Assembly: GCA_017991375.1 (NCBI GenBank)
Contig: JAGOQP010000005.1
Location: forward strand, 8,348 to 72,347
From: Minisyncoccota bacterium
GTDB lineage: Bacteria > Patescibacteriota > Minisyncoccia > UBA6257 > JAGOQP01
Length of the DNA: 64,000 bases
Reading direction: 5' to 3'
Shown: positions 1 through 59,118 of the stretch, piece after piece
How the letters are laid out: every line of letters starts with the position of its first letter
How positions within the stretch are numbered: the stretch's first letter is position 1
The notes under the pieces: model-generated
What the model was told of the DNA's origin: nothing
The model's database searches: none
What the model saw: the letters and a program-made list of their open reading frames with translations, nothing else
Made by a program: the position numbers and the translations under genes

Positions 1-450
1 AGTGCGCTCGACGCTATAACTAAAAAGAATCCATTTGCTCCTATTGAAGCGGTGCCACTTCCTCAACTTAGTGGAGCGGTGGCGGGTTCGATTGCTAACT
101 TCGTTTCGTATATGGGTCTTGCTGTTTCCAAGCAGTCGTCATATCCGTATGTCGCGTGGCATTTTGCGAGTTATCTTACCATGAGCGATGCTGTCTCTGA
201 TACATATCTTCAACAAACAGGGAAACTTCCCGCGCTTAAAACACTCATTAACAAAGGTATTCAAGCAGGGGATCGCAAAAGCGTTTTTCTTAAGTCGTTT
301 TTAACCGCTAAAACATGGGGGCAAGCTGACGCTACCGCTATTGCCTCTATATTTCGTTCAATGATATTTAATATTATTTCCGGGAAACTTGATCAGGGTA
401 AGGCGATCGGGGCGGCTCAAGAACAAATAAATCAATTGGGTGCTTACTGA
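1..450 (+). CDS. C-terminal fragment of a putative ABC-transporter solute-binding protein; the gene starts upstream of the window
   Basis: ORF is open to the window edge and stops at TGA 448-450. The 132-aa tail is hydrophilic and loosely resembles family-1 solute-binding proteins. Weak. Confidence 0.3.
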   Translation, partial: SALDAITKKNPFAPIEAVPLPQLSGAVAGSIANFVSYMGLAVSKQSSYPYVAWHFASYLTMSDAVSDTYLQQTGKLPALKTLINKGIQAGDRKSVFLKSFLTAKTWGQADATAIASIFRSMIFNIISGKLDQGKAIGAAQEQINQLGAY

Positions 451-471
451 TGATGTGGTATACTTTTTATT

Positions 472-837
472 ATGACAAAGCGTCTGTTGGTTCTATGTGC
501 TAGTGGTTTTTTGGGGGCTACCTTTTTTGTTTTTTCCATGCCGGCACACGCGGCTTTGGTGACCTGCGGGAACACTGACCAGAATCCATGCACGTTTACT
601 GATCTTCTTAATCTAGCTAATGTTGTTATACGTTTTGCGCTCTTTAACATCGCGCTTCCCCTTGTAACCGCGCTTGTTGTTTTTTTGGGGATTAAACTAG
701 TTATCTCCCGGGGAAAACCGGGGGAGTTTGCTCAAGCCAGAAAACAGCTTACCAATACACTCATTGGACTCGCGATTGCGTTTGGGGCGTGGATTATTGT
801 TGGTACTCTTTTGCGGTTTATCGCGATGCTTAAGTAG
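472..837 (+). CDS. VirB2/TrbC-like T4SS-pilin-family small membrane protein (paralog 1 of 5)
   Basis: 121 aa with a signal peptide (MTKRLLVLCASGFLGATFFVFSMPAHA) and a Cys pair (CGNTDQNPC). Two C-terminal hydrophobic helices are separated by the loop SRGKPGEFAQARKQL. The same architecture repeats in the next 4 genes. Confidence 0.5.
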   Translation: MTKRLLVLCASGFLGATFFVFSMPAHAALVTCGNTDQNPCTFTDLLNLANVVIRFALFNIALPLVTALVVFLGIKLVISRGKPGEFAQARKQLTNTLIGLAIAFGAWIIVGTLLRFIAMLK

Positions 838-853
838 GATATACTTACGATAT

Positions 854-1195
854 ATGAAACATTTTCTCTTCTCACTTCTTGCTTATGGTCTTGCTCTTAA
901 CGCTCGAGCTCAATCGGGGGGTGAGAGTGTAATATTAGAAAACCCCATCCCTGGAACAACCAGTTTGGAAGGGCTTATTGATAAGGTCATTAACTACTTG
1001 TTCATTATCGCGACTCCTATCGCTACTATTATGGCGCTTTACGCCGGGTTTGTTATATTAACCGGGAAGGGAAACCCGGCTAAATTGAAAGAGGGATATT
1101 CTATACTAAAGAATATCGCGATTGGTTATGGTGTTATTATATGCGCCAAGGGTGTCTCACTTTTAGTTATGGAGTTTTTAGGGGTTAACCAATAA
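854..1195 (+). CDS. VirB2/TrbC-like pilin-family protein (paralog 2)
   Basis: ATG at 854 is in frame with ORF 728..1195. Signal peptide MKHFLFSLLAYGLALNARA, then TM, loop TGKGNPAKLKEGYSILKN, then TM. Confidence 0.5.
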   Translation: MKHFLFSLLAYGLALNARAQSGGESVILENPIPGTTSLEGLIDKVINYLFIIATPIATIMALYAGFVILTGKGNPAKLKEGYSILKNIAIGYGVIICAKGVSLLVMEFLGVNQ

Positions 1196-1210
1196 TTATT
1201 TATTATTTTT

Positions 1211-1564
1211 ATGAAAAAACTAGCATATACATTGTTTGCGATAGTTCTTGGGGTCACTATTTTTACTCCAATCGCCCTGGGGGTGACCACGACCCCTCTT
1301 CCTGAATCGCCTATACAGAATTTTGAAGGGGAAAAAAGTGTTATGGGATTGCTGGAGAAGGCCGTTGTGTGGATGTACCGTATATTTTTTGTGATAGCTG
1401 TTTTATATATTCTTATCGCGGCATTCACTATCTTGACCGAAAAAGATAAGGCAAAAGCGTGGGAAAAAGGAAAGGCGCAACTTACTAACGCGGCAATCGC
1501 TATTGTGGTTGCCTTGGTCGCAAGCGGATTTGCGGCAGTCGTTAAATCGTTTCTTACCTCTTAA
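1211..1564 (+). CDS. VirB2/TrbC-like pilin-family protein (paralog 3)
   Basis: 117 aa with a signal peptide. TM, loop TEKDKAKAWEKGKAQLTN, then TM. Confidence 0.5.
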   Translation: MKKLAYTLFAIVLGVTIFTPIALGVTTTPLPESPIQNFEGEKSVMGLLEKAVVWMYRIFFVIAVLYILIAAFTILTEKDKAKAWEKGKAQLTNAAIAIVVALVASGFAAVVKSFLTS

Positions 1565-1567
1565 ATT

Positions 1568-2065
1568 ATGCGACTATTTTTTATTTCGCTTTTTTTGCTC
1601 ATTACTCTTCTTTTTACTGTTTCGGTTGCGTTGGCAGCAAACACGAGTGATTATGTTTCACCACTTCAGGATACGCTCAAATCCCCCATTACCGACTACA
1701 AACAGATTGCTGACGTGAGTACGTCGCGCGGGCTTATCTTTACCGTCATTACGTTCGCGTACTATCTTCTCTTTGCCGTCGCGACGCTTTTTATTATTAT
1801 CGCGGCGTACAATTTTGTTCTTGGTGGCGCTGATAAAAGTGGCAAGAAAGTTCAACTTGCTCAAGCGCAACTTAAGTATGCTATTATCGCGCTTATTGTT
1901 GGGCTTCTTGTTTTAGTGATTCCTAAATTGGTTACTAACACCGTGGAAAATGCCGGCACTGGCGCTAATACAACCGTGCCCCCTCAGAGCACCGCACGGG
2001 GGAATGATACGGATTATTGCACGCTTTATCCACTTGATCCGTATTGTCGCGTGGGGCCATATTAA
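1568..2065 (+). CDS. VirB2/TrbC-like pilin-family protein (paralog 4) with a C-terminal Cys-containing extension
   Basis: 165 aa with a signal peptide. TM, loop GGADKSGKKVQLAQAQLKY, then TM. C-terminal tail ends ...DYCTLYPLDPYCRVGPY. Confidence 0.5.
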   Translation: MRLFFISLFLLITLLFTVSVALAANTSDYVSPLQDTLKSPITDYKQIADVSTSRGLIFTVITFAYYLLFAVATLFIIIAAYNFVLGGADKSGKKVQLAQAQLKYAIIALIVGLLVLVIPKLVTNTVENAGTGANTTVPPQSTARGNDTDYCTLYPLDPYCRVGPY

Positions 2066-2158
2066 TTCGTGCTATGTACATAGAGCCATCGCTGTTTGTA
2101 CTTTTTATTTCTTTGTGCTATCATAGTATCAATAAGTAATTTATTATTAATATTTATT

Positions 2159-2539
2159 ATGAATAAAAAGACGTTGTTAGCGACAGGTATTACCGTGTTG
2201 ATTCTCGGTGTGTCTTTGGTTACCGCATTTGCTCAACCAAGCGGGCCGATCAACATTCCTGGTGTTGGGGTGCAGAATGCAAATCTGACCAGCGTTGGTG
2301 GGTGGGTCGGTGTTTTAATCACTGTTATTCGTTGGTTGTACCATATTCTATTTGTTGTTGCTGTTTTGATGATTATATGGGCGGCGTTCTTGTTCGTTAC
2401 GAGCAAGGGAGATCCAAAAAAGACAGATGTGGCAAAGAATATGATCAAATACGCGATCATTGGTATGATTGTCGCCCTTCTTTCTTACGTGATTGTGCAG
2501 TTCATTCAGAACGCTGTTACTAACACACTTACTTCGTAG
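2159..2539 (+). CDS. VirB2/TrbC-like pilin-family protein (paralog 5)
   Basis: ATG at 2159 (MNKKTLLATG...) within ORF 2096..2539. Signal peptide, then TM, loop TSKGDPKKTDVAKNMIKY, then TM. Confidence 0.5.
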   Translation: MNKKTLLATGITVLILGVSLVTAFAQPSGPINIPGVGVQNANLTSVGGWVGVLITVIRWLYHILFVVAVLMIIWAAFLFVTSKGDPKKTDVAKNMIKYAIIGMIVALLSYVIVQFIQNAVTNTLTS

Positions 2540-2590: not shown

Positions 2591-2627
2591 ACACGGTGTT
2601 GGCGGAAACTCCTAACCTTTGGTCTTG

Positions 2628-2711
2628 TGTCGGAGGGGAGATTTGAACTCCCAAGACATTTCTGTCACTAGCTCCTAAGGCTAGCGCGTCTGCCAATTTC
2701 GCCACTCCGAC
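2628..2711 (-). tRNA. tRNA-Leu (anticodon UAG), type II with a long variable arm
   Basis: Reverse complement is GTCGGAG...CTAGC-CTTAGGA-GCTAG, with variable arm TGACAGAAATGTC, T-arm GGGAGTTCAAATCTCCC, and acceptor CTCCGAC+A. The acceptor stem pairs perfectly. Confidence 0.8.
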
Positions 2712-2789: not shown

Positions 2790-3698
2790 TTACGCGCGAC
2801 GTTTTCCGTGGAATGCTTGGTGGACATTTTTGAGCTCTTTGTTGGTAATATGTGTGTATACTTGTGTCGTGGCGATATTAGCATGTCCCAAAAGCGCTTG
2901 TACTGAGCGAATATCGGCTCCGTTCATAAGTAGATCGGTTGCAAATTGGTGTCTCAATTGGTGCGGGGTTATTTTTTTTACGATCCCTGCTTTTTTTGCG
3001 TAGTGTTGAACAAGACGTTGTATAGTGCGAGGGAGTATTTTTCCAAGAACTTTTGGATTTTTTGCTTTCGACATACTCACAAAAAGCGCTTCTTCCGCGT
3101 CGGGTCTTTTTTCTAGGTATTCTTTTATTGCTTTTTGAGCGCGCGGAGAAAGAAATACCACACGTAACTTTTGTCCTTTGCCTCTTACTGTTATTTCCCC
3201 GCGAGATATATCAAGATATCGAGAAAGCGAACAGAGCTCGCTGATACGCAGACCCGTTGAGAAAAGAGTTTCTAATAGCGCTCGATCACGCAGAGCTTTT
3301 AAGGAGGTGCCCTGAGGGCCCTTGAGAAATCGCTCCAGGTCCGCGTAGTCCACTACTTCTATCTGGCGTTGCTCTATTTTAGGAAGCTCTATTTGTTCGG
3401 GGAGTATGTTGAGAGGAACCTCGTTCTTTACGCAGTATTTTAGAAAATTTCGCAGAGCGATTGCGTAATAACTTTGTGTTTTGCGTTTTAGATATTCTAA
3501 TTCCTTTCCTTTTTTTCGAGATAGAGAGAGTCGAAACTGTTTGACTGCGTACTGCGTGACTTCTTTTATTGTTTTAGCACTGCTTTCTTTTACAAACGTG
3601 TTTAGGTAGCGGCGATAATTTTCCACCGTTTTTGGTGAACGATTTTTTTCTATTTCAAGATAGTCCAGGTAGTCATTTATAAGTTGTTGGAGAGACAT
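2790..3698 (-). CDS. XerC/XerD-family tyrosine site-specific recombinase
   Basis: 302 aa. C-terminal catalytic motif HQLRHQFATDLLMNGADIRSVQALLGHANIATTQVYTH and N-terminal core-binding helices (LDYLEIEKNRSPKTVENY). Confidence 0.8.
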   Translation of the reverse strand: MSLQQLINDYLDYLEIEKNRSPKTVENYRRYLNTFVKESSAKTIKEVTQYAVKQFRLSLSRKKGKELEYLKRKTQSYYAIALRNFLKYCVKNEVPLNILPEQIELPKIEQRQIEVVDYADLERFLKGPQGTSLKALRDRALLETLFSTGLRISELCSLSRYLDISRGEITVRGKGQKLRVVFLSPRAQKAIKEYLEKRPDAEEALFVSMSKAKNPKVLGKILPRTIQRLVQHYAKKAGIVKKITPHQLRHQFATDLLMNGADIRSVQALLGHANIATTQVYTHITNKELKNVHQAFHGKRRA

Positions 3699-3700
3699 AA

Positions 3701-3761
3701 CATGATGCTAATACTAACTAACGACTAACCACCTACAACTAACAACAAGAGAAATCGTTAA
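3701..3761. repeat. 61-nt interspersed repeat, copy A, identical to 34696..34756
   Basis: catgatgctaatactaactaacgactaaccacctacaactaacaacaagagaaatcgttaa occurs identically at both loci. A degenerate copy is at 18171..18218. Confidence 0.9.
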
Positions 3762-4057
3762 TCTTTGACCAGGACCGGGAAGACGATCTTTCATCTTTAG
3801 TCATTAATCCTTGACTGGGAGCGGGGAGGGAATCATTAATCTTTTATCGTTAATTGTTGACCGAGAGCGGGTAGCTATTAACCTTTGGTTTTTGATCGCC
3901 GGTCGTTAATTGCCGAATCTTATTATACACTTTTTAATATTGTGCGACAGATGGGTATATTGATTGTGGCTAATGGCCTTCCTATCTCGTCGCGGCGGGT
4001 TTGGAATGGTGCTCATGCATATGATTGACTTTTGGGGCTAAATGGCATATACTATAG

Positions 4058-15253: not shown

Positions 15254-16921
15254 TTATTTAAAGACCCGTTTTGTCTTGAGATACCAGTACGTACTACTGG
15301 CAAAACGATCTGAGGGAATAGCAATTGTTCCCATGACAATTCCGTCTATGCTTGAGCGGTGCGCGTATATGTAGAGCGGTGATGTAATGAATAACGCGGG
15401 TACATCGTGTGAAATAAGTTGTTGAATTTCGTTAAGGGTTTGTTTTCTCTGCGCGCTATCGGGTGGGGATTTTCTCAGGGCCGTGAGCCGCGTGTCAACC
15501 GCGCTGTTTTCGTATAAGGAAAGGTTGAGCCCAGGAGCAAATTTTTCTGATGAGTGCCAGAATGAGAAAAGCTCCGGTTGCGTTGCCACCGTGCTTCCAA
15601 ATAAGAGTAATTGATAATCACGTGTTTTTATAACATCTTCCGCTATATTTTGTGGATCTATGAGAACCACTGTTGTTTTTATTCCTACGCGTTCCCATTG
15701 CACTTTAATCGCGTTGGCTATTTCTTTGAGGCCCAAGATGTCCGGTGTCTTTATGGTTACTAGCAACTCTTGTGTTCCCGATTTGTCTTTTTTTTCAAAC
15801 CACCCATTCGCGTTTTTTGTCCACCCCATTTGTTCTATGACTGTTTGTGCTTGTTGTGGGTTGTGGGTATCATTTTCTTCTATCGCTTTGTTGTATGTAT
15901 CTAGCGTTGGAGGAATCGGACCATGAGCTTCGAGGGCGGCATCTCCATAGACCGTTTCTATAATCTCTTTTTTGTTCGTCGCATACGCCAACGCCTGTCT
16001 AAAGGCCGTTTGAGCTAGTGGCGCGTAGGCGTTTTGATTTATAAAGAGCACGTACTGTTTTGTTGTGGGAGTTTTAATAATGCCGGTGCTTATGGTTGTT
16101 TTTTCGGTCGTCTTTTTATCTACTCCCCCAAATCCATCAAGTAATCCTTTGTTGTACGCGCGGATAAGCTCATCCTCATTTTCAAAGAATTTGATGACTA
16201 TTGTCTTGATATAGGGAGTTTTTTCTATTTTTTCGAATGCTGGGTTGGATTGTAGTGTGTAGCTGGTCACGAACGCATCTTTGCGTTTTTCTAATGATAT
16301 AAATTTAAATGGGCCGCTCCCTATGGGTTCGCTGTTGTATTGCGATAGTCGTATGTTCGCGGGCGCTATGTCCGCAAACAATTTTTTTGGAATTGGTCGG
16401 AGATTGCTCAGTAAAAGTGATTGAAATGGGGCGTAACTGCTAGCGCTGTTGAATCGAACCTCTCGTTCGCTCACGCGCGTAGGCATAATACCTTGCCATT
16501 CGCTAAAAAGTGGAGAAAGGGTATCGGCGTTTTGTATAAGCGCTATCGTAAAGATAATATCGTCGCTTGTTATTGGGGTGCCGTCGTGCCACTGCGCGTT
16601 TTCTTTGATGCGTACTGTCCACGTTTTAAATTGGTCATCGTGCGTGACGCTCTCTGCTAGGTCGTTTATATTCGCAAATAAAAGCGTTACTAGGTCACTT
16701 TGGGGAGCTAGTATCGGGTTAATAAACGACGGTTGGCCGATCACCCCTTCGGTGTATGTTCCTCCGTATGTCGGTATGGTTTGCGTGTGAACACGTATTA
16801 CGCGCGCGCCTACAAATGTTCCCGAGACGCCAGCGCACAATATCATGCACGCGATTATAAATCGTTCACGCCGCGAAAACGATCGCGCGAGCGCTTTTGA
16901 CAATGCTATGAGTCGTTTCAT
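15254..16921 (-). CDS. ABC-transporter substrate-binding protein, family 5 (oligopeptide/nickel type), membrane-anchored
   Basis: 555 aa with an N-terminal signal/TM. Size and scattered motifs (YTEGVIGQPSFINPIL...) resemble SBP_bac_5. Confidence 0.45.
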   Translation of the reverse strand: MKRLIALSKALARSFSRRERFIIACMILCAGVSGTFVGARVIRVHTQTIPTYGGTYTEGVIGQPSFINPILAPQSDLVTLLFANINDLAESVTHDDQFKTWTVRIKENAQWHDGTPITSDDIIFTIALIQNADTLSPLFSEWQGIMPTRVSEREVRFNSASSYAPFQSLLLSNLRPIPKKLFADIAPANIRLSQYNSEPIGSGPFKFISLEKRKDAFVTSYTLQSNPAFEKIEKTPYIKTIVIKFFENEDELIRAYNKGLLDGFGGVDKKTTEKTTISTGIIKTPTTKQYVLFINQNAYAPLAQTAFRQALAYATNKKEIIETVYGDAALEAHGPIPPTLDTYNKAIEENDTHNPQQAQTVIEQMGWTKNANGWFEKKDKSGTQELLVTIKTPDILGLKEIANAIKVQWERVGIKTTVVLIDPQNIAEDVIKTRDYQLLLFGSTVATQPELFSFWHSSEKFAPGLNLSLYENSAVDTRLTALRKSPPDSAQRKQTLNEIQQLISHDVPALFITSPLYIYAHRSSIDGIVMGTIAIPSDRFASSTYWYLKTKRVFK

Positions 16922-38910: not shown

Positions 38911-39001
38911 GCTCTTTTGTAGTATACATAAAAACGACGCATTGTTATATGCGTTACCGTATTAGTTGAAGAAAGGGCGCATATTTGCTATAGTTTTTTG
39001 T

Positions 39002-42000
39002 ATGCTACGAAATCTTAAATCGTTTACCCCTCCCGAACTAGAAGAAAAAGTGCTGGCACTCTGGAAAGAAAAGAATGTATTCAAAAAATCTATTACTCCC
39101 AAGAAAGGCGCGCGTGTTCGCCGATTTAATTTTTGGGAAGGACCGCCAACTGCCAACGGACGCCCCGGGATTCATCATGTGCTCGCGCGAGCGTTTAAAG
39201 ACGTGGTGTTGCGATTTAAAACGATGCAGGGCTTTATTGTTCCTCGAAAAGGGGGGTGGGATACGCACGGATTACCAGTTGAACTACAAGTAGAAAAGCA
39301 ACTAGGATTTACATCAAAAAAAGACATTGAAGCATTTGGTGTCGCTTCGTTTAACCAAAAGTGTAAAGAGTCGGTGTGGCTGTATAAGAGTGAGTGGGAG
39401 AAGCTCACTGAACGTATGGGGTATTGGTTGGATCTTGAACACCCATATGTGACGTATCACAAGAGCTATATGGAGTCGCTGTGGTGGATTATCAAACAGA
39501 TTTGGGACAAGGGGTTGTTGTATAAAGGACACAAAGTTGTTCCCTGGTGCACGCGTTGTGGCACGGCTCTTTCGTCTCACGAATTGGCACAAGGGTACAA
39601 AGAAGTAACTGATACATCGGTGTATGTAAAGTTTAAATTATTACCAAAACAAAAAATCGGTTCTTTTGTTACTGATGATAATACATTCATTCTTTCGTGG
39701 ACGACAACGCCGTGGACATTGCCAGGAAATGTTGCGCTCGCGGTTGGAGAAAAGATTCAATACAAAGCAGTGAAAGACCAAGAGAGTAAAGAAGTGTACA
39801 TCTTAGCATATGAATTAATAGAGAATGTGTTAAAGAAGGATGGATTGGAACCTATATCCGATATAAAAGGAAAGGATCTTGTCGGACTTTCGTACGAACC
39901 TCTTTTTAACGTGCCGTCACTCCATTCGGGCACATCATACCGCGTATATCCTGCTGATTTTGTGACGACAACCGATGGAACCGGTGTTGTGCACACCGCG
40001 GTTATGTACGGTGAAGATGATTACGTCTTAGGAAAAGAAGTTGAATTGCCACAAAAACACACCGTTGATGAGCAAGGATTTTTTACTAAGGAGGTAGTCG
40101 ATCTTGCGGGTCTCTACGCCAAAGATAAAAAAACAGAAGAAACTATTGTGCGTATTCTTTCGCAAAAAAATCTAATTCTTTCCACAGTTCCTCACACACA
40201 TGACTATCCTCATTGCTGGAGATGTGGCACGCCTCTTTTGTACTACGCTCGCTCATCGTGGTTTGTCGCGATGTCGAAATTACGCGCCCAACTTATTGAA
40301 TCAAACAAGGACACCATTTGGGTCCCCTCACATATTAAAGAAGGACGATTTGGTGAATGGCTTTCTGAAGTTAAGGATTGGAATTTTTCCCGTGAGCGGT
40401 ATTGGGGAACACCGCTTCCTATATGGGAATGTTCGTGCGGTCATCAAGAGGCGATAGGGAGTTATATGGAATTAAGTGCGCGTCTGCCACACTCTACTAA
40501 CCGCTACATTTTCGTGCGGCACGGAGAAGCGGGCCATAATATAAAACATATCATTAACTCAGATCCTAAAAATAAAGACGAATTTTCTCTCACTAAAAAA
40601 GGAGAACAACAGGTTGCAAAAACAGCGGCACAACTTAAAAAAACATTTAAGCGAGTAGACGCGCTCTATTCATCCGATTTTATTCGTGCCAGAGAAACGG
40701 CGAGTATTATCGCTCGCGCAGTGGGGGCATCTCACGTTCATTATGACCCGAGATTAAGAGAAATTTTTGTCGGTTCATTTGAAGGAGAGCATATGGATCG
40801 ATACCATCACTACTACGCATCACTCGAAGAAAAATTTATAAAACCAGCTCCCGAGGGAGAAAGTTTACAAGATGTTGCCGCTCGCGTGTGGGATTTTATC
40901 TCCGCGTGTGAAAAGAAGCATACAAATGAAACCATTGTGGTGGTAAGTCACGAGTATCCTATATGGATGCTTGAAGCAGTGCTTTCCGGTTGGAGTCAAG
41001 AGGAGGCGGTAGCCAAAAAAGAAAGCCGTGGCGATGATTTTATTGCTCTTGCCGAGTCGCGCGCGGTAGAGTGCGTCGCCGCGTCACGTGACGAGAAGGG
41101 TTTTGCTGATTATCACAAACCATACATTGACGCGGTTACTATTCCCTGTAAGAAATGCGGTGCTCATATGACGCGCGTGAAGGAGGTTGTAGATGTGTGG
41201 TTTGATTCTGGCGCAATGCCGTTTGCGCAATCGCATTATCCATTTGGGGCAACCAACAACCAACCCTTCGATCCCTCAGGATCTGCCATAAGCAGACAAC
41301 CAACAACCAACGAAAAAAAATAGGGAACGAAAGATAAAAAACAAAACATCGATGAGCTTGTCTATCCGGCGGAGTATATTTCCGAAGCCATTGATCAAAC
41401 ACGTGGGTGGTTCTACACCCTATTAGCGGTGGCAACGCTTTTGGGAAAGCCCACCCCGTATAAAAACATTATTTGTCTTGGACACATCAACGACAAAAAT
41501 GGACAAAAAATGTCCAAGTCAAAAGGAAATATTGTTGATCCATGGGGAGTGGCCAACAAATATGGCATGGATGCTATTCGGTGGTATTTGTACTCCGTCA
41601 ACAGCCCGGGAGATCCAAAGAACTTTGATGAGGACGAGGTGGCAAAAATTGTACGTAGCGTACTACTCACACTCTATAACTCGTTTGTATTTTTAAACGT
41701 GTATGGAAAAGACAAGTTGTTGCTTACCAGACAGCCGGCGGCAGTGGGGGCGCTTGATACATGGATCTACGCGCGCGTTGCCCAGGTAAGTGCCGCGGTA
41801 CGTGAACGTATGGACGCATACGACATTACCAAATCCACTCAACTCATAGAAGAATTTATCGACGATTTGTCGCGGTGGTATATTCGTCGTTCTCGCAAGC
41901 GATTTCAGCGCCCTCAAAACGCGGCCGAACATCAACGCGTGTCCGCGGTTCTTGCATTTGTGCTTTTTGAAACAAGTAAAATAATCGCTCCATTTCTTCC

Positions 42001-42676
42001 TTTTTTTGCCGAGGAGCTTTATCAGTCGCTTGTTCATATGTATCGATGCGATGCTAAGGACTCTGTTCATCTGGCGTCATGGCCGCAAAGTTCAAAATCA
42101 ACATTTAATAATGCTTTGTGCGAGCATATGACGCGAGTGCGTTCCATTGCTTCACTCGCATTAGCGTTGCGCGCTGAGCTTGGTATAAAAGTTCGTCAAC
42201 CGCTTGCCACTCTGACGGTTAAGGGAGATGTTTTTTCGGGAGTATTTGCACAAGAACTTCTGGATATTCTTAAAGAGGAGGTGAACGTAAAAAACGTGGT
42301 GTTCGATAAAAATCTTGATACCGATGTTATATTAGATACTGTTATTACGCCAGAACTTAGAGCAGAAGGATTGCTTCGCGAAATGACTCGTGTGGTACAA
42401 GATCTTCGTCAAGAGGCGGGGTATGTGCCGCAAGATACTATCGCGCTGTGGATCGACACCAATGGTTCGCTCGCGCCGCTTCTTCGTACGCATCAGGAAC
42501 GGTTTGCAAAAGACGTTGGAGCATACGTAGTTAATTTTGAAAAAAGCGCACTCTTTGACGCAGAAATAGAGACCAAGGTTGATGATCAGCGGGTGTGGGT
42601 GGGGGTCAAAAAAGAGACAAACAACTCACGACATACAACCAACAACAAGAAAGAAAAGAAGAATAAGAGGCATTAA
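39002..42676 (+). CDS. ileS: Isoleucine--tRNA ligase (type 2, Cys-knuckle type). One frame throughout, interrupted by a single in-frame TAG at 41321-41323, with an embedded histidine-phosphatase domain
   Basis: HIGH = PGIHHVLARAFKD. KMSKS = KMSKSKGN (41507-41530). The editing/CP1 and anticodon-binding regions are present. Across the TAG the frame reads ...[44 protein letters not shown]..., which is the conserved IleRS '..DQ.RGWF' block. A PGAM-like domain (RYIFVRHGEAGHN ... IVVVSHEYPIWMLEAVL) sits between WECSCG and PCKKCGAH. Confidence 0.85.
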
Positions 42677-52339: not shown

Positions 52340-52849
52340 ATGCTGCCGCCTTTTTATTCGTTTAAACTTCTTTCTCGAGATGAAGCGCGTCGTGTCCGTA
52401 CGCCGTCTTCATTGTCTTCTGGCGACGCTCGTCGCGTTGATAATAATAAACGCGCTTTTATAAAACTACTAGGTGTTGTTGGGCTCGGTTTTATTGTGAC
52501 AGCTCTTTTTCCTAAAAAAGCCGACGCGCTCGTTTTTGGCAGCGCTCCAGCGTCAAATGTTGTGGGGGTAAAAAATGCTTCAAATACTAGAATTAATCCG
52601 GCAACTGACGAGAAGCTAGACGCGATTGTGACGGCGCTTAATGCGTCGGGCGGATACAAGATTTCCGATTTAGACGATTCGGGAACAATAAATTATTTTG
52701 GATATGTCGCGTCTACTGGCGCATGGTACATTTTGGCGTATAACACGTCTACAAACACATTCCGGTATATCAAAGGAGATTCAAGTTATTCAACAAACTG
52801 GACCAATAGATCTTCTCTCTCATACGATTACTACGATGTTGTGTTTTAA
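52340..52849 (+). CDS. Hypothetical secreted protein with a Tat-like (KR) signal motif
   Basis: ...RRVDNNKRAFIKLLGVVGLGFIVTALFPKKADA resembles an S/T-R-R-x-F-L-K signal, then an S/T/N/Y-rich C-terminus. Confidence 0.35.
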   Translation: MLPPFYSFKLLSRDEARRVRTPSSLSSGDARRVDNNKRAFIKLLGVVGLGFIVTALFPKKADALVFGSAPASNVVGVKNASNTRINPATDEKLDAIVTALNASGGYKISDLDDSGTINYFGYVASTGAWYILAYNTSTNTFRYIKGDSSYSTNWTNRSSLSYDYYDVVF

Positions 52850-52889
52850 ATAATTTTTATTATCAAATAATGTTTGCGATGATATACAT

Positions 52890-53315
52890 ATGAAGGCGAT
52901 ATTAAAACAAGTTACCGATTTTGATTCGACATCTTCTGACGAATCTCTGATCAAAAAAAATACTATAGTCAAAGAAGAAAAAATAACTTCTAACGATGGT
53001 GGCCAAGAGCGTGTTGAACTGATAAAAAAAGAAATTGAGGTTATCGAGCCGATATTTATTGAAGTGGATGATCGGACATATATCAAGTTCGATAAAAGTT
53101 CGCATCGTTCTGAAACTATTAATGTTGGCGAATTACGGGATCGCAAACAAGAAATTGAAACACGGCTTGCTCTTTTAAACGACTACTCCGATGAAAACTT
53201 ACTAGCATGGGCAAAGAGTAATTACCCAGGAGAAACGGGTGTCAAAGAAAGAGAGCAGTTAATAAGCGAGCTTAATACTATTAACGGTAATTTAAACGAA
53301 ATCGATGGCGATTAA
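52890..53315 (+). CDS. Small acidic hypothetical protein; overlaps the downstream giant ORF, suggesting translational coupling
   Basis: 141 aa, E/D/K-rich with no TM. Its stop overlaps the start of the 854-aa ORF by 11 nt. Confidence 0.35.
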   Translation: MKAILKQVTDFDSTSSDESLIKKNTIVKEEKITSNDGGQERVELIKKEIEVIEPIFIEVDDRTYIKFDKSSHRSETINVGELRDRKQEIETRLALLNDYSDENLLAWAKSNYPGETGVKEREQLISELNTINGNLNEIDGD

Positions 53316-55869
53316 GGTTGCTACATCATCGGGGAACTTCAACACCGCAGGTACGTGGTACACGGGAACAGAAACCAATACTGGAAGCACGGGCGGTACA
53401 ACTATGTCGACTACCCGTTACACGGCTGCTTTTACCGCCCCAAACACGACGAACACTTGTCAAGGGATAGTCGTATTAATGTATAGTTTGCCAACGTCGT
53501 CTCTTTCAAGTGTTACTGCGCAACTGCAAGAGTATAATGGGAGTACGTGGAATGATTGCGCCGGGGCGTCGATGACTCTTAACGAAAGCGACATTGACGC
53601 GTTCCGTTACTACACCGCTTCAACCACTGTTGCGTTGTTCTTGTATTTCAAGTTCGGAACGCCTTACACGTACACGACGACCTCTGCGGGTTATTATCGC
53701 GTAAAGCTTTCTCGCGCAGTGGCGAGCGCGTCAACCGCCGTGTATGCAAGCACGGTGACGAGTGAGGTGTGGGGGGTTATTGTTGATGACCGCACAGGCG
53801 CACCAGCTTCTTCAGATACGTGTTATGTGGTTGGCGTAACGGGGACGAAGACGACGGTGACGCTTGATGGTGCTTGCGCTTGCGGCCCAACGGTTGCGAC
53901 TGATGGTACTGATTATAGTACGATAACACCCTCTAACTCTGCTAACTGGGGGTTGTGCATAGGTTATCAAGGACAAGTCATTCCCGATTCAACGCAAAAC
54001 ACAACTCTGACAATGAATGGTTCTGCTCCGATTGTCGTTGCTGGAGGTCAGCTTAACTTCGGAACAGCTTCCGCGCCTTACACCGCTTCGTATACCGCGC
54101 AGATTGTTTATAACCCAAAAACGGCTTATTCGTGTGGTATTAGGGTTTATGGGTACAATGCTTCGTTAGAGCATTTCAGTATGGTTGGTCAGAGTAAGAC
54201 ATACAAGACCACCTATACTTCTGGCGCTGGAACGACCGCGAGTCCTTTAGTGGTCGCTGACGCGACTGGCTGGGCGGTTGGAGACCTCATCGGAGTGTCG
54301 GGCGATGCTTACAACAAACACGAGTTTAAGTACATAAAGACACTTGCGGGAACGTCTATCACCACTGCCGATAGTGTTGGTGGCGCAGAAAGCGGTTTTT
54401 CAAACACTCATTACGCGGCTGATTGGGTGCTGAACCTTTCTCGTAACGTGAAAATGGTTTCTTCGGGCGCGAACAAGTTTTGGTTCGGTTTTTTGAACAA
54501 TGTTTCTACGACTGCGGGGATTATGAAGTACGCAGAGTTTTCAGACATCGGAGGAAACGCGAGTTCACGGTTTACTTTTTTCATCGCGAACACTGCTCGC
54601 CACGCAATCAATATTGAAGGGTGCGCCATTTATGACATTCGCAACACGACTAATCTTACACAACCGTTGATTTACGGCTACGACACCTCTAACGCAAGCA
54701 ACACATACAAGAACAACGTGCATTTCGTGGCGGTGCTCGCAACAGTTCCTTATGTGAGTACGATGGCGCGGTTGTCGTTGAAGAACAACTCTGCCACGAA
54801 CGTTACAAACAATTATTTCGTCGGCGGTAGATACATTGGGTGTGACTTGTATGGCTATGGAGCGACGTACGATAATTTTCACGTCAGAAACGCGAGCGCA
54901 GGATATTCAAGCTCAACTTCTTACGCGGGAATAATCGCCAATAGTGGCGCTAACGTCACGCTACAAAACTGCACAGTCAATGCTTCGCGGAGTCACGCAC
55001 TAACCATAAACGCCAATGACAACAATCTTCTCGTGAAAAACTGTTCTTTTGGGACGGTGTATGCGAACAGCGCGCTTGGCGATGTTTCGCTCAATTCATT
55101 TGGTTCGTACAGCACGGCAGTTTTTGACTCGTGCGACTTCAGTAGCGCTGGCGGGTGGTATTTCTATGTAGCAGGATCCAATGGGTATATGTATAACTCT
55201 GCGGGTTCTCAGTATGCTTTCCAAAACTATGATAATTCAAGTGGCGACCACAGGGTGTATAAACCTGAGGGTGATATACAAAGAACTGCAGCGGGACTTA
55301 CCGATACAACGGTCAGAACGACTGGCGGGAGTTGTTTAAGATTTACTCCGATAGATACGACAAACAGATTAGAATGGTCGCAGGATGTTCCTGTCGGCGA
55401 CGTTACCGCGCAAACAATGACTGTCGGCGTGTGGTGCAAGATTAACAGCGCGACATATTACGCGGGAACGAATCAGATGCCTCGCCTTACAGTAGATTAT
55501 GATAACGGCACGACGGCTTACGCGGAGGCGGCAGAATCAACTGATTGGCAATTTCTATCTATCCCCGTTACCGCCACAACTTCATATCCTAAATGGGAAC
55601 TAACCGTCTCTGCATTGACTGATGCTACAAGCACAGATGCTTATGTTTACTTCACCGACTTCTCGGTGCTCTACCCTGCGGGTTATCAGCTGAAACTCGG
55701 AGAACTGGCTTACTTTGCAGATGGAGAGCCGTTAAAGCCGACGATAGCGACCAATTTGTCACCTGCTGATGTATGGGCGGTGAGCACGAGCGGGCTTACT
55801 GGTGATGGGACAATAGGAAGGTTTGTTACAAAGTTATTAACGGTGGCGAAGTTTTTGGGGCTAAAGTAA
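53305..55869 (+). CDS. Large S/T/N/G/Y-rich protein with a predicted right-handed beta-helix (tailspike / pectin-lyase-fold-like), no signal peptide
   Basis: 854 aa. Repetitive N-x-T/S and 'NVTLQNCTV / NLLVKNCSF' rungs typical of parallel beta-helices. N-terminus MAIKVATSSGNFNTAGTWYTG has no hydrophobic leader. Confidence 0.4.
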   Translation: MAIKVATSSGNFNTAGTWYTGTETNTGSTGGTTMSTTRYTAAFTAPNTTNTCQGIVVLMYSLPTSSLSSVTAQLQEYNGSTWNDCAGASMTLNESDIDAFRYYTASTTVALFLYFKFGTPYTYTTTSAGYYRVKLSRAVASASTAVYASTVTSEVWGVIVDDRTGAPASSDTCYVVGVTGTKTTVTLDGACACGPTVATDGTDYSTITPSNSANWGLCIGYQGQVIPDSTQNTTLTMNGSAPIVVAGGQLNFGTASAPYTASYTAQIVYNPKTAYSCGIRVYGYNASLEHFSMVGQSKTYKTTYTSGAGTTASPLVVADATGWAVGDLIGVSGDAYNKHEFKYIKTLAGTSITTADSVGGAESGFSNTHYAADWVLNLSRNVKMVSSGANKFWFGFLNNVSTTAGIMKYAEFSDIGGNASSRFTFFIANTARHAINIEGCAIYDIRNTTNLTQPLIYGYDTSNASNTYKNNVHFVAVLATVPYVSTMARLSLKNNSATNVTNNYFVGGRYIGCDLYGYGATYDNFHVRNASAGYSSSTSYAGIIANSGANVTLQNCTVNASRSHALTINANDNNLLVKNCSFGTVYANSALGDVSLNSFGSYSTAVFDSCDFSSAGGWYFYVAGSNGYMYNSAGSQYAFQNYDNSSGDHRVYKPEGDIQRTAAGLTDTTVRTTGGSCLRFTPIDTTNRLEWSQDVPVGDVTAQTMTVGVWCKINSATYYAGTNQMPRLTVDYDNGTTAYAEAAESTDWQFLSIPVTATTSYPKWELTVSALTDATSTDAYVYFTDFSVLYPAGYQLKLGELAYFADGEPLKPTIATNLSPADVWAVSTSGLTGDGTIGRFVTKLLTVAKFLGLK

Positions 55870-55875
55870 TATCAT

Positions 55876-56613
55876 ATGCGCGCGAGGCAATCTTCTGGAA
55901 AAAAAATTTCTACTTTTTATCCATACCTTGATGATATTCGTCAGCGTGTGTATGGATTAGCGGTTATCTTTCTCGCGCTCTTTACTATTGGATTTTTAAG
56001 TTCGGGGGTGTTATTGCGTGCCGTTGTATTATTCTTTACAATTCCTGGCGTTTCGATCGTGACTACATCTCCGTTTCAATTTGTTGATCTCGCGATGACC
56101 ATTGGCATTTTAATGGCGCTTATCGGATGTATTCCACTTTGTGTTTATCACCTATACGCTTTTTTAAAAGATTGTCTCCATACTCGTGAGCGATTCTTAT
56201 TCTTTTTGCTTCTTCCTGCAAGCGCGTTACTTTTTGCGCTTGGCTTTGCCTATGGATTTGGCGTTTTATACTACGCGTTGAGCGCTATAGCCGCTCTTAA
56301 TATTTCCCTAGGGACTCCTAACTTATGGGACATAGGACGATTTCTCTCTCAAATTGGGGTGAGCGCTGCCTTACTTGGACTTTTATTTCAATTTCCAATC
56401 ATACTCATTTTTTTGCTTCGCGGAGGCATTATGAGTCCTGATTTTCTTAAATCAAAATGGCGTCACGCGATTATGATTATTCTCATTTTTACCGCGCTCC
56501 TTCCTCCTACTGATGGACTCTCTCTTGTTATTATGGTTGTTCCGCTTATCGTATTATATGTATGTGTCTCTTTTATGGCGCCGTTTATTGTTCGTCGCCG
56601 GACGGCGGCGTAA
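55876..56613 (+). CDS. tatC: Twin-arginine translocase subunit TatC
   Basis: YLDDIRQRV..., TTSPFQFVDLAM...YHLYAFLKDCLHTRERFLFFLLLP, and GIMSPDFLKSKWRHAIMIILIFTALLPPTD parallel E. coli TatC blocks (HLIELRKRL; SPFFTP..ERR; GITSPEDLRKKRPY...LTPPD). Confidence 0.75.
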   Translation: MRARQSSGKKISTFYPYLDDIRQRVYGLAVIFLALFTIGFLSSGVLLRAVVLFFTIPGVSIVTTSPFQFVDLAMTIGILMALIGCIPLCVYHLYAFLKDCLHTRERFLFFLLLPASALLFALGFAYGFGVLYYALSAIAALNISLGTPNLWDIGRFLSQIGVSAALLGLLFQFPIILIFLLRGGIMSPDFLKSKWRHAIMIILIFTALLPPTDGLSLVIMVVPLIVLYVCVSFMAPFIVRRRTAA

Positions 56614-56629
56614 TACTCTGGTGGTGATT

Positions 56630-58213
56630 ATGTGTATAAAGTATACTATTACTATGCGCGCACGTTTTGGAATTTTTCTTTTTGTATGTTGTGGGGCGTT
56701 TTGGTGTATTGGAACGTCCTCGTATGCGTATGAAACCGTTCTTCCAGGAGGCGCTATTACCATAGGCGAGTTTGTCTACGATGATGATTTTCAAGCAACC
56801 ACAACCCCTTGCACGGTGTCAGTATATAATCCTTCGGGTGGGTTGGCAGTAAATACAGCAATGACTGCCGAAAGTAATGGGTGGCACTATTATGTGTTTA
56901 CCGGCACAACGGCAGAGGGTACATGGCCGACATTAATTCAATGTGGATCAACAACGACGGGGGATCTTATTAAAATGGATAAAACATTCTATGTGGGGTA
57001 CGCTCCTGTTGTGACGTCAACTATTCCTGATCTTGTAGCGCAAACGGTGTGGGGGTATGCCACGCGCACGCTTTCATCCGGAGCATCTATTGTAAGTGAT
57101 ATTTGGGGAGGAGCTGGACGATCGCTCACGACGTTTGGAACGCTTGTGTCTGACGTATGGAGCGATGTTTCTGTTCCCATCAGGCGACTAAGCGACAACT
57201 TATTTAGCGGTGGCGGATCTATTGCGACAGAACAACAACTTCAAACCGCAACTAGTACATTGCAACAGGGAATCACCTCAATCGGAGCGACACTCAACGC
57301 TCGTTGGGATGTTTCTTTGTCAAACGTTGAGCGGGTTCTTGTTGGAAAAACATATCGCGCAAAAGTGAGCGTGCTTATGGCGTCCTCTACGCCGGCTGAC
57401 TCATACGCGCTTCCTCTGGTAACATTGTACGATGCTGACCGAAATGCCGTGGTATCAGCAGTTGCAATGACGAAACTTTCGGCGGGCGTGTATGAATACA
57501 CCTATAGCGTTCCAGGATCAGCCGCCGAGGGCCTGTGGGAAACAGTAGTAACAACGGAAGTGGAAGCGGGAAAAACATTAACAACAAACGACTATTGGAG
57601 TGTTGAGGGTTCTCCCGCGCAAGTTATTATTAATGGAGTGACCGATACCACTATTCCCGATATTGTTGCCAATGTGACCATTACCAATGAAGGACTGACC
57701 GGATATGAGTATCACTATGAATGGTGTGTTGTGGCAGAAAGTTCAAATACTTGTGGTGATGGAGATGATATGTATTACGCGTCCGCGTCAAAATACATAA
57801 ATGCGGGAGAAGATTGGAACACTAATTTAACCGCTGTCGTTTCTTCAGTCGGATCGTATCTATTTAAATTAGTTGTGTATTATGGCACTGAACAATCGGG
57901 CTCGTCTAGAACATTTACTGCTCAAACAGCATCCGCGCCTCCTGGAGGGGGTGGAGGAGCCGGGGGTGGGGGTGGCACGCAACAAACAACTGCACCAACT
58001 CCGTCGGGGACACCACTGGTTAACACTCAATGTCGTGGCGCGGATTTTAATTTGGATTCAAAGGTAAACTCAATTGATTTTTCAATTTTACTCGCGTTTT
58101 GGAAGACAGCGTCGCCATTCAAAAACCCTTGCGTGGATATTAATACGGATTTGAGAGTTGATTCAGTCGATTTTTCTATACTTATGTATCAGTGGGGTAA
58201 AAAGGGAATATAA
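56630..58213 (+). CDS. Secreted protein with a Gly-rich linker and a C-terminal type-I dockerin domain
   Basis: Signal peptide (RFGIFLFVCCGAFWCIGTSSYA). Linker APPGGGGGAGGGGGTQQTTAPTPSG. Duplicated Ca-binding segments ADFNLDSKVNSIDFSILLAFW and DINTDLRVDSVDFSILMYQW. Confidence 0.6.
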   Translation: MCIKYTITMRARFGIFLFVCCGAFWCIGTSSYAYETVLPGGAITIGEFVYDDDFQATTTPCTVSVYNPSGGLAVNTAMTAESNGWHYYVFTGTTAEGTWPTLIQCGSTTTGDLIKMDKTFYVGYAPVVTSTIPDLVAQTVWGYATRTLSSGASIVSDIWGGAGRSLTTFGTLVSDVWSDVSVPIRRLSDNLFSGGGSIATEQQLQTATSTLQQGITSIGATLNARWDVSLSNVERVLVGKTYRAKVSVLMASSTPADSYALPLVTLYDADRNAVVSAVAMTKLSAGVYEYTYSVPGSAAEGLWETVVTTEVEAGKTLTTNDYWSVEGSPAQVIINGVTDTTIPDIVANVTITNEGLTGYEYHYEWCVVAESSNTCGDGDDMYYASASKYINAGEDWNTNLTAVVSSVGSYLFKLVVYYGTEQSGSSRTFTAQTASAPPGGGGGAGGGGGTQQTTAPTPSGTPLVNTQCRGADFNLDSKVNSIDFSILLAFWKTASPFKNPCVDINTDLRVDSVDFSILMYQWGKKGI

Positions 58214-58224
58214 TATTCATAACT

Positions 58225-59118
58225 ATGAAGCGCTATTACGTTGTATATCTGTTCGTGTTGGTTATTGCAGTGTTTCTTATGCGTGGCGGCGAGGTTTTTG
58301 CCGCGACTGTTTATCCAGTTATTGATTCTTCGTCCGTGCGCGTTGGTGATACGGCGGTCATTACTCTTTTTCTGGATACCGAAGGAGAGACCATAAACAC
58401 CGTTGATGGGTCGTTTTCTCTTGGGGCCAATACGCAACTACTCGCGGTAAAAGATTTTTCTTTCGCGGGAAGCGGATTTTCATATTGGGTTCATCATCCT
58501 TCTCTCTCGTTAGAGAGCGGAATCATTTCTTTTGTTGGGGGCGCCCCAGGAGGAGTATCTGGCTCGTCCGTCGTGCTTTTTAAAACGATTGTGTTAGCCA
58601 AAAAGACGGGGACCATATCCATTACTCCAGGAGCTATTAACGCCTATCTTAATGATGGGAAAGGGACGTTGATTTCTGTTCGCACAAAAACACTTTCAGT
58701 TACGGCGGAAAAACAAACGGGAGAACCAAATGATTCATGGGCGCGAGTGCTTGCGTCCGACACGCGTCCTCCTTCTGATCTGCGTGTTGAATTTGGAAAA
58801 AGTACTGAACTTTTTGAAGGAAGATGGTTTGCATCAATACGCGCGGCCGATAGCGAATCGGGGATAGACCGATATGAGGTCATGGAAAACGGTCGTTCCG
58901 TTGTCCTGGCAACTCCTTTATATGAACTCTCCAACCAATCAGGAAATGCTCGTCTTAACGTCGTTGTCTACGATAAAGCTGGTAATAAAAGCGAGATAAC
59001 AATCAGTCAAGACAAGGGATGGCCATGGTGGTATGTTGTTGTCATCGTCGTTGTTATCGTTTGTGCGTTATATATTATTCGTAGATTTATACGAAGAAAA
59101 AAAATTATTCAATGGTAA
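58225..59118 (+). CDS. Membrane-anchored cohesin-domain protein 1
   Basis: Signal peptide, then a ~140-aa segment with cohesin-like beta-sandwich pattern (VGDTAVITLFLDT...INTVDGSFSL...ISFVGGAPGGVSGSSVVLFKTIVLAKKTGTISI...NAYLNDGKGTLI). C-terminal TM WPWWYVVVIVVVIVCALYII + RRFIRRKK. Confidence 0.5.
   Translation: MKRYYVVYLFVLVIAVFLMRGGEVFAATVYPVIDSSSVRVGDTAVITLFLDTEGETINTVDGSFSLGANTQLLAVKDFSFAGSGFSYWVHHPSLSLESGIISFVGGAPGGVSGSSVVLFKTIVLAKKTGTISITPGAINAYLNDGKGTLISVRTKTLSVTAEKQTGEPNDSWARVLASDTRPPSDLRVEFGKSTELFEGRWFASIRAADSESGIDRYEVMENGRSVVLATPLYELSNQSGNARLNVVVYDKAGNKSEITISQDKGWPWWYVVVIVVVIVCALYIIRRFIRRKKIIQW

Follow-up and report, generated by a model that had tools for sequence, protein, structure and literature searches.

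The subject of this report is a tandem array of five genes for small membrane proteins, which we read as pilins of the kind used by type IV secretion systems (T4SS), at positions 472-2539 of a 64-kb stretch of DNA from a Minisyncoccota bacterium (contig JAGOQP010000005.1). This whole stretch is called the window, and coordinates refer to it unless another locus is named. An earlier note on the same DNA had described five plus-strand genes of 114-165 amino acids (aa) with one common architecture; strand and architecture stand, but the shortest product has 113 aa. The five genes are co-oriented and fill the interval, all start with ATG and are separated by 16, 15, 3 and 93 nucleotides (nt). A mechanical list of open reading frames (ORFs) puts the starts of genes 2 and 5 at upstream TTG codons; the ATG codons used here instead agree with the gene calls on an identical public contig (L001). 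End positions in the following list include the stop codon.

472-837, plus strand: pilin paralogue 1 (p1), 121 aa; PF18895 37.1 bits; PF04956 (TrbC) 19.4 bits, E = 0.0013
854-1195, plus strand: pilin paralogue 2 (p2), 113 aa; PF18895 42.6 bits; PF04956 (TrbC) 22.3 bits, E = 1.5e-4
1211-1564, plus strand: pilin paralogue 3 (p3), 117 aa; PF18895 28.0 bits
1568-2065, plus strand: pilin paralogue 4 (p4), 165 aa; PF18895 26.8 bits, barely over the cut-off
2159-2539, plus strand: pilin paralogue 5 (p5), 126 aa; PF18895 39.4 bits

The whole-protein cut-offs were the Pfam gathering scores, namely 26.6 bits for PF18895 (T4SS_pilin) and 27.9 bits for PF04956 (TrbC/VirB2). All five proteins exceed the first of these (26.8-42.6 bits), p3 and p4 narrowly, and this outcome of the profile search that the earlier note had called for bears out its assignment of the genes to the VirB2/TrbC type rather than to type IV pilins. 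PF04956 is the second-best family for p1 and p2, reaches E = 0.052 with p4 and does not match p3 or p5; among 30 collected family members, all match PF18895 and 13 match PF04956 at E <= 0.01 (best E = 1.3e-9). Pairwise identity among the five paralogues is low (13.5-32.8%, mean about 24%), and since all of them match one Pfam family above its gathering score, their common architecture reflects homology and not chance. We are therefore highly confident that the array genes are divergent members of the VirB2-like T4SS_pilin family PF18895. A profile made from the pilins and run on the window found the five array ORFs only. In NCBIfam, p2 and p5 give weak matches (19.8 and 27.7 bits, for a cut-off of 40 bits) to NF045849, the Mbov_0395 family of pilin-like proteins from integrative and conjugative elements (ICEs). 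Finally, p5 is 100% identical to P0001 (KBC26_02175), deposited as "MAG: Candidatus Pacebacteria bacterium" (MAG, metagenome-assembled genome), which belongs in the NCBI taxonomy to the phylum Minisyncoccota (Patescibacteria, or candidate phyla radiation). A look-up of the exact sequence of p1 gave no record.

Each protein begins with a hydrophobic segment ending in an AxA-like site, from which cleavage of a signal peptide is predicted in all five, and continues with a hydrophilic stretch of 20-30 residues; hydropathy then indicates two strongly hydrophobic segments with a short Lys/Arg-rich loop between them (GKGNPAKLK in p2). The cleavable leader, the two hydrophobic helices and the short positive loop of VirB2-type pilins are thus predicted for every member of the array. 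An AlphaFold2 model of p5, made from the 30-sequence alignment, consists of a signal-peptide helix, a disordered segment (residues 25-43) and a helical hairpin (46-81 and 86-125, with the loop KGDP); confidence (predicted local distance difference test, pLDDT) is about 80 in the hairpin, with a mean of 67 for the whole model. Both cysteine pairs described earlier are present. In p1 the predicted signal peptide (...AHA|A) is followed at the mature N-terminus by a Cys-x7-Cys loop, CGNTDQNPC, and then by the two-helix hairpin, while p4 carries a C-terminal tail of 40 aa made of a Thr/Pro-rich linker and a Cys pair (DYC...PYC).

The possibility that these are type IV pilins or pseudopilins has to be weighed here, as the window does contain a PilB/GspE-type ATPase that could assemble them and Patescibacteria do use type IV pili (PMC10633639).

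34773-36491: PilB/GspE-type ATPase, T2SSE 402 bits; flanked by a lipoprotein-like ORF and by rplT/rpmI/infC

This ATPase is as isolated as the earlier note had said, with no pilus genes next to it, and it lies 32 kb from the array. None of the five sequences has the G/FTLIE prepilin motif, again in agreement with that note, nor a class III signal peptide, the N-termini being of Sec type with AxA-like sites; none matches a type IV pilin family in Pfam, and the model is a hairpin with two transmembrane helices, not a single N-terminal helix with a globular head. We consider this interpretation extremely improbable.

Chromosomal neighbourhood of the array

The array is bordered by the following features.

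52..450, plus strand: 3' end of the gene for an orphan solute-binding protein (SBP) of the SBP_bac_1 type (Pfam SBP_bac_1, SBP_bac_8)
2539-2592, strand not assigned: intrinsic-terminator hairpin closing the operon, an inverted repeat with 24-nt arms, 92% complementary
2627-2711, minus strand: tRNA-Leu, anticodon UAG (ARAGORN; Rfam tRNA 56.5 bits)
2790-3698, minus strand: XerC/XerD-like tyrosine recombinase (Phage_integrase 138 bits, with a SAM-like N-domain)

The SBP gene starts upstream of the window and is complete on L001 (6979-8292, 437 aa), a contig identical to the window across a 3730-nt overlap and adding 7.8 kb upstream, where the gene order is gyrA, SBP and the five pilins. The protein has an N-terminal transmembrane anchor and matches GanS and MalE weakly in NCBIfam; no ABC permease or ATPase that could serve it was found among the called upstream genes of L001 or the annotated ORFs of the window. 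The SBP gene stops 21 nt short of p1 and is probably the first of the pilin operon. Extended -10-like motifs can be seen by eye before p1 (TGgTATACT, 455-463) and in the 93-nt AT-rich spacer region that precedes p5 (TGcTATCAT, 2113-2123); both were missed by a consensus promoter scan, and their -35 regions are poor. A second solute-binding protein of the window, of the SBP_bac_5 type (15254-16921, minus strand), is also without adjacent ABC permease or ATPase genes.

This arrangement is old. We scanned relatives with p5 orthologues as query, taking one genome per species, which gave 29 loci and a sample biased to the orthologous locus. Nearly all of these contain arrays of 2-7 pilin genes, and most show the order gyrA, SBP, array and then Xer on the opposite strand, with gyrA 50-74% and Xer 55-81% identical; the nearest are MAGs of Paceibacterota, Wolfebacteria and Parcubacteria. 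The succession of SBP and pilins on the same strand recurs in about 25 related loci (gyrA identities 50-100%), mostly with gaps below 100 nt, and Xer lies downstream of the array in more than 20, at 55-89% identity. Strains with p5 identities of 87% and 74% have the five genes in the same order and with the same lengths. Such synteny, kept across more than 20 species, indicates that Xer is a conserved chromosomal neighbour, and that the array has been inherited vertically rather than carried as cargo of a mobile element.

At its downstream side, the array ends as the earlier note had claimed, with a terminator, a tRNA-Leu(UAG) and a XerC/D-like recombinase, except that the last two are on the minus strand and convergent with the array. 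The hairpin, directly after p5, has a folding energy of -31.4 kcal/mol (z = -6.63; no sequence among 200 shuffled ones was as stable) and recurs after the array in a related locus (L007); it was overlooked by a simple terminator scan and revealed by folding. The A-run before it and the T-run after it suggest that it could terminate transcription in both directions, including that coming from the convergent tRNA and xer genes. An Rfam match to "Thr_leader" at 2527-2585 (31 bits, gathering score 55) was rejected, being only this terminator hairpin. The tRNA-Leu marks the downstream border of the array and is not part of the system.

A tRNA gene and a tyrosine recombinase directly after an array could be taken as a sign that the latter is the cargo of an integrative element inserted at tRNA-Leu by this recombinase. 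The spot does accept insertions: the interval between terminator and tRNA-Leu (about 2593-2626) differs by an indel of about 150 nt in L006, and in a sister strain, L007 (10400-12700), it holds a 2.2-kb islet flanked by direct repeats of about 60 nt, whose three genes code for a DUF5320 protein, a DUF134 protein and a membrane protein of 365 aa that has a CxxC motif at its N-terminus. The array, however, is separated from this spot by the terminator. Its own presence is not variable, the gyrA-SBP-array-Xer order being kept as described; no repeats flank it, its GC content (0.42-0.44) is that of the rest of the window, and no relaxase or T4SS genes accompany it. The recombinase is not of an element type, its top NCBIfam models being XerC (238 bits) and XerD (234 bits), both under their equivalog cut-offs. 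The mobile-element reading of the tRNA and recombinase was rejected on synteny and composition, and that the array is such a cargo seems to us hardly credible.

Three side observations concern the same border. In more distant relatives, a gene for H+-PPase lies between array and Xer. The intergenic region between xer and rpsO (3754-3874) contains three copies of a 29-nt unit, ATCGTTAATCTTTGACCAGGACCGGGAAG, 76-79% identical and 46 nt apart, without any match in Rfam. Just beyond them, a 23-nt stretch (3870-3892) resembles the sequence beside tRNA-Leu (2604-2626).

The remainder of the window is ordinary chromosome. Pfam searches of nearly all the larger ORFs identified PNPase, RNase J, H+-PPase, ClpP, ClpB and RecA, together with SHMT, FolD, NusA, IF3, SmpB, tmRNA, aminoacyl-tRNA synthetases and TatC. 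One class I synthetase of the Ile/Val/Leu type is apparently split into two ORFs, the first of which (38966-41323) also ends in a histidine-phosphatase domain (His_Phos_1), the second (41429-42676) comprising the last part of the catalytic domain together with the anticodon-binding domain. On the plus strand at 52340-60842, a run of genes codes for large proteins that Pfam recognises poorly or not at all: four of 169, 141, 854 (rich in Thr, Ser, Asn and Gly) and 297 aa have no match, one of 566 aa has a dockerin-like and an MG2-like match and one of 576 aa a match to Big_13, with TatC (55876-56613) in their midst. This run is possibly a surface or adhesin cluster.

Orthogroups, strain variation and fused pilins

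Five divergent copies of a pilin gene in one operon may be seen in two ways. On one view they would be interchangeable versions of a single major pilin, a repertoire that serves to vary antigens or host range or to evade phages, with one or a few in use at any time; on the other, they would be distinct subunits used together. The first idea agrees with the strong divergence of the paralogues (13-33% identity), and the published reading of Patescibacteria arrays invokes the analogy of Bartonella and Anaplasma VirB2 (PMC12102498). The evolutionary history of the copies nevertheless argues against it. In related arrays (L013-L021, L024), the genes in first, second, third and last position best match p1, p2, p3 and p5, respectively, giving the recurrent order p1-p2-p3-(p3/p4)-p5, and the Cys pair of p1 is retained in the orthologues of L009, L013, L016 and L020. 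The tail of p4 varies between species, and its Cys pair is found in close relatives only. These positional matches and the conserved Cys pair of p1 indicate that the five genes are old positional orthogroups, each position having its own signature.

We compared the window strain with two close strains, with the following results for amino-acid identity and synonymous divergence (dS).

gyrA: identity 99.6-99.8%, dS 0.06
p1 and p2: identity 98-99%, dS 0.02-0.15
p3: identity 86-90%, dS 0.36-0.44
p4: identity 91%, dS 0.15-0.18
p5: identity 84%, dS 0.62

Copy number, which the earlier note had proposed to check between strains, is fixed in related strains, as is gene order, and the ratio of nonsynonymous to synonymous divergence is 0.05-0.35 in all five genes (about 0.05 in p2), so that all five paralogues are under purifying selection. 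Genes 3-5, on the other hand, are hypervariable between these otherwise near-identical strains, which is a point in favour of a variant repertoire: dS is elevated by a factor of 5-10 in p3 and p5 and of about 2-3 in p4. A sliding comparison locates this variation in patches of 15-24% nt divergence at about 1160-1400 (in p3, 16-18%), 1460-1700 and 2160-2560, over a background of 0-5%. In p5 the divergence is 17.7%, versus 2.5% in the flanks (binomial p about 1e-35), and across genes 3-5 the patch excess has p values from about 1e-8 to 1e-35. The hypervariable part of p3 is its N-terminal third, while in p4 the signal-peptide region varies; p5 is the best conserved orthogroup across species and the most variable gene between strains. 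As synonymous divergence is raised in sharply bounded patches, we infer that alleles of p3-p5 have probably been exchanged by homologous recombination, rather than that these proteins have just evolved faster. The diversification of a surface subunit suggested in the earlier note thus holds only in part: recent variation between strains is confined to mosaic patches in genes 3-5, and the paralogues themselves are orthogroups of old standing that keep their positions and evolve under purifying selection. Within the array we found no inverted or long direct repeats by which switching or gene conversion might be driven, only short chance matches; no repeats flank it, and the genes are tightly spaced in one operon.

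A further argument against the repertoire comes from covalent fusions. An exhaustive profile search returned about 92,000 cluster representatives (50% identity) at E <= 1e-3, and its top matches are poly-pilins with one signal peptide and 2-17 PF18895-like hairpin units per chain, for instance the following.

P0147: poly-pilin, 606 aa, 7 units
P0149: poly-pilin, 552 aa, 6 units
P0153: poly-pilin, 1775 aa, 17 units

A two-unit fusion (L028, 9130-9840) is one continuous ORF under genetic code 11. Fusion leaves the topology consistent, as each unit has two membrane spans. As to whether unit order follows array order, the first unit of P0149 scores nearly equally against p1 (48.9) and p5 (47.4). 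The existence of poly-pilins suggests that the separate paralogues of an array may act side by side or assemble together. Taking all this into account, we think it unlikely that the five genes are interchangeable variants of one pilin.

Other members of the family are extended rather than fused. Cys-rich extensions are N-terminal in a 412-aa protein and C-terminal in a 242-aa protein of L003, which would be consistent with both termini lying outside the cell. More generally, hairpins with large extra domains, many of them Cys-rich, occur in L003 (4225-5463 and 6271-6999), L034 (9108-9779) and L035 (9554-10273); these domains reach about 320 aa where they are N-terminal and about 130 aa where they are C-terminal, and could be surface-displayed, adhesin-like modules.

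Secretion machinery and possible function

The reading that we favour, with moderate confidence, is that of a chromosomal operon in which an orphan, membrane-anchored SBP is encoded together with five VirB2-like subunits feeding a T4SS surface structure. The hairpin subunits would enter the membrane via Sec, lose their signal peptide and adopt the classical topology of VirB2 and TraA, an alpha-helical hairpin whose short Lys/Arg loop faces the cytoplasm and whose two ends are exposed on the outside. From this membrane pool, a T4SS of the monoderm type with its genes at another place in the genome (VirB4, TrsD, PrgI/VirB3 and a VirB6-like protein) would build a heteromeric filament or conduit on the surface, aimed at the host cell in an epibiotic lifestyle. 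The five subunits would then be non-redundant types assembling side by side, some of them specialised (p1 with a disulfide loop, p4 with a C-terminal knob) and p5 being the best candidate for the major one, while exposed parts of p3-p5 would be swapped between strains through homologous recombination. A role of the SBP in this structure would be conjectural.

The link to secretion comes from other Patescibacteria, in which the PF18895 family is associated with VirB4 clusters. At L045, a locus from Saccharimonadales, genes for VirB4 (P-loop_TraG/AAA_10), a TraC-like/TrsD protein and PrgI, as well as for proteins of 980 and 593 aa, lie beside seven pilin genes belonging to the family, and there is no SBP. 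Three loci orthologous to ours and linked to gyrA (L023, L027, L030) belong to genomes listed as "VirB4: Yes", class Paceibacteria, in the published Table S1; the published supplement has no KBC26 entry. As a side observation, the VirB4 of Saccharimonadales (P0027-P0146) is remarkably uniform, more than 100 distinct clusters at 90% identity each sharing about 88-92% identity, over 400 residues, with the VirB4 of L045 used as query, and the pilins beside it rank among the most divergent proteins of those genomes.

Several facts weigh against the T4SS reading. As the earlier note had stated, the window has no VirB4 or VirD4; these two are absent from the 8 kb upstream (L001, L006) as well, VirB6, PrgI and TrsD are missing from both stretches, and there is no relaxase in the window. 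Nor did any T4SS gene turn up at up to 10 kb from the array in 42 related loci, which, like the window, were searched by tblastn with Patescibacterial VirB4, TrsD, PrgI and two further proteins of T4SS clusters, in addition to clustering of large ORFs and Pfam searches of the unexplained ones. None of the five proteins reaches the gathering score of PF04956; as this family is matched by 13 of the 30 relatives, the link to it is at the superfamily level. Comparison with solved conjugative pilins in the PDB gave no significant match (best Foldseek E 1.7, profile search 0.07), a result that we regard as uninformative, since so simple a fold as a bare two-helix hairpin is not diagnostic. Polytopic chains with as many as 17 fused units sit poorly with the extrusion of a pilus one subunit at a time. 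Finally, according to a 2025 review (PMC12857230), which calls the possible pilus of these monoderms an open question, no pilus has been demonstrated for any Patescibacterium; the literature speaks of a "potential to elaborate conjugative pili".

The same facts can be turned into a different hypothesis, in which the hairpins are a T4SS-independent envelope module that oligomerises as a channel or scaffold with the SBP, for example in the capture of host-derived carbohydrates, and no pilus is extruded. It would explain why SBP and array are adjacent, co-oriented and closely spaced in about 25 loci, why the SBP lacks an ABC permease or ATPase partner nearby and why no T4SS gene is close in any of these loci, and fusions of 6-17 units do resemble integral membrane proteins. 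However, the same family occurs inside the VirB4 clusters of Saccharimonadales, where there is no SBP and where it is essential as a component of that T4SS locus; VirB4 is indeed encoded in genomes that carry the orthologous locus, the adjacency of the SBP may be inherited synteny with no functional coupling, and there is no experimental hint of such a module. It appears to us distinctly unlikely. A further idea, which is speculative and to our minds also quite improbable, is that of an obligate hetero-oligomer that is not a classical pilus: five fixed subunit types, fused in some lineages into chains of up to 17 hairpins, would form a trans-envelope conduit that works with the SBP in taking up molecules from the host and that might need no VirB4 machine of its own close by. 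Strains would exchange the exposed parts of subunits 3-5 to match different hosts.

Relation to published systems

Patescibacteria account for a large part of the bacterial diversity not yet cultivated and lead a life attached to other microbes, and in the sole member studied genetically, a T4SS and its pilin array are essential. In this species, Southlakia epibionticum, the array lies in the T4SS locus SEML1_0006-0019 (Wang et al. 2023, PMC10633639; PMC12857230). Among Patescibacteria assemblies that contain VirB4, Quinonero-Coronel et al. (2025, PMC12102498) found 1,948 with VirB2-like pilins, which in 1,135 cases are close to virB4, and they counted 441 arrays made up of 2-11 pilin genes, the copies being 25% identical on average; the PF18895 family has also been reported to dominate freshwater-specific protein clusters (bioRxiv 10.1101/2025.04.23.650224). 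Given these 441 arrays and the essential one of Southlakia, our array is an example of a locus type already described; it fits the published picture and does not change it. It shares with the published arrays the family, the phylum, tandem co-orientation (five copies here, 2-11 there), Sec-type signal peptides and the identity between copies (about 24% versus 25%). Unlike that of Southlakia, it lies away from any T4SS cluster, in the gyrA-SBP-array-Xer context; but since pilins are near virB4 in just 1,135 of 1,948 assemblies, unlinked ones are not exceptional.

The gyrA-SBP-array-Xer context is not mentioned in PMC12102498, and in the literature searched we found no mention of positional orthogroups, strain-level mosaic variation, fused poly-pilins or the gyrA-SBP linkage. 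We consider these as incremental additions to the published picture. They define a widely conserved variant, with a five-type operon fixed beside gyrA and an orphan SBP and unlinked to ATPase genes, and provide evidence that the copies are distinct subunits rather than spare variants, only some of which are reshuffled between strains. As the family is very large (about 92,000 clusters), rules of array organisation apply to many genomes.

Among better known systems, the TrbC/VirB2 pilins (Agrobacterium VirB2, RP4 TrbC, F TraA) are similarly small, with a leader, two hydrophobic helices and a short basic loop, but these Gram-negative systems have one major pilin, as opposed to several distinct paralogues in a monoderm host here, where none of their VirB5, cyclase or TraF-type maturation genes was seen. 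Mbov_0395/MMCAP2_0565 of mycoplasma ICEs is, like our proteins, a small hairpin protein, and it belongs to a monoderm T4SS of the MPF-FATA type; its gene is single-copy, mobile and beside VirB4, whereas the five copies here are chromosomal and unlinked to VirB4. The closest parallel in copy number is with Bartonella and Anaplasma VirB2, which also come as several divergent tandem copies and for which variation of surface-exposed parts has been proposed (PMC12102498). There, the copies are inside the virB locus of Gram-negative, effector-translocating systems; here, they are ancient, conserved in position and probably used together.

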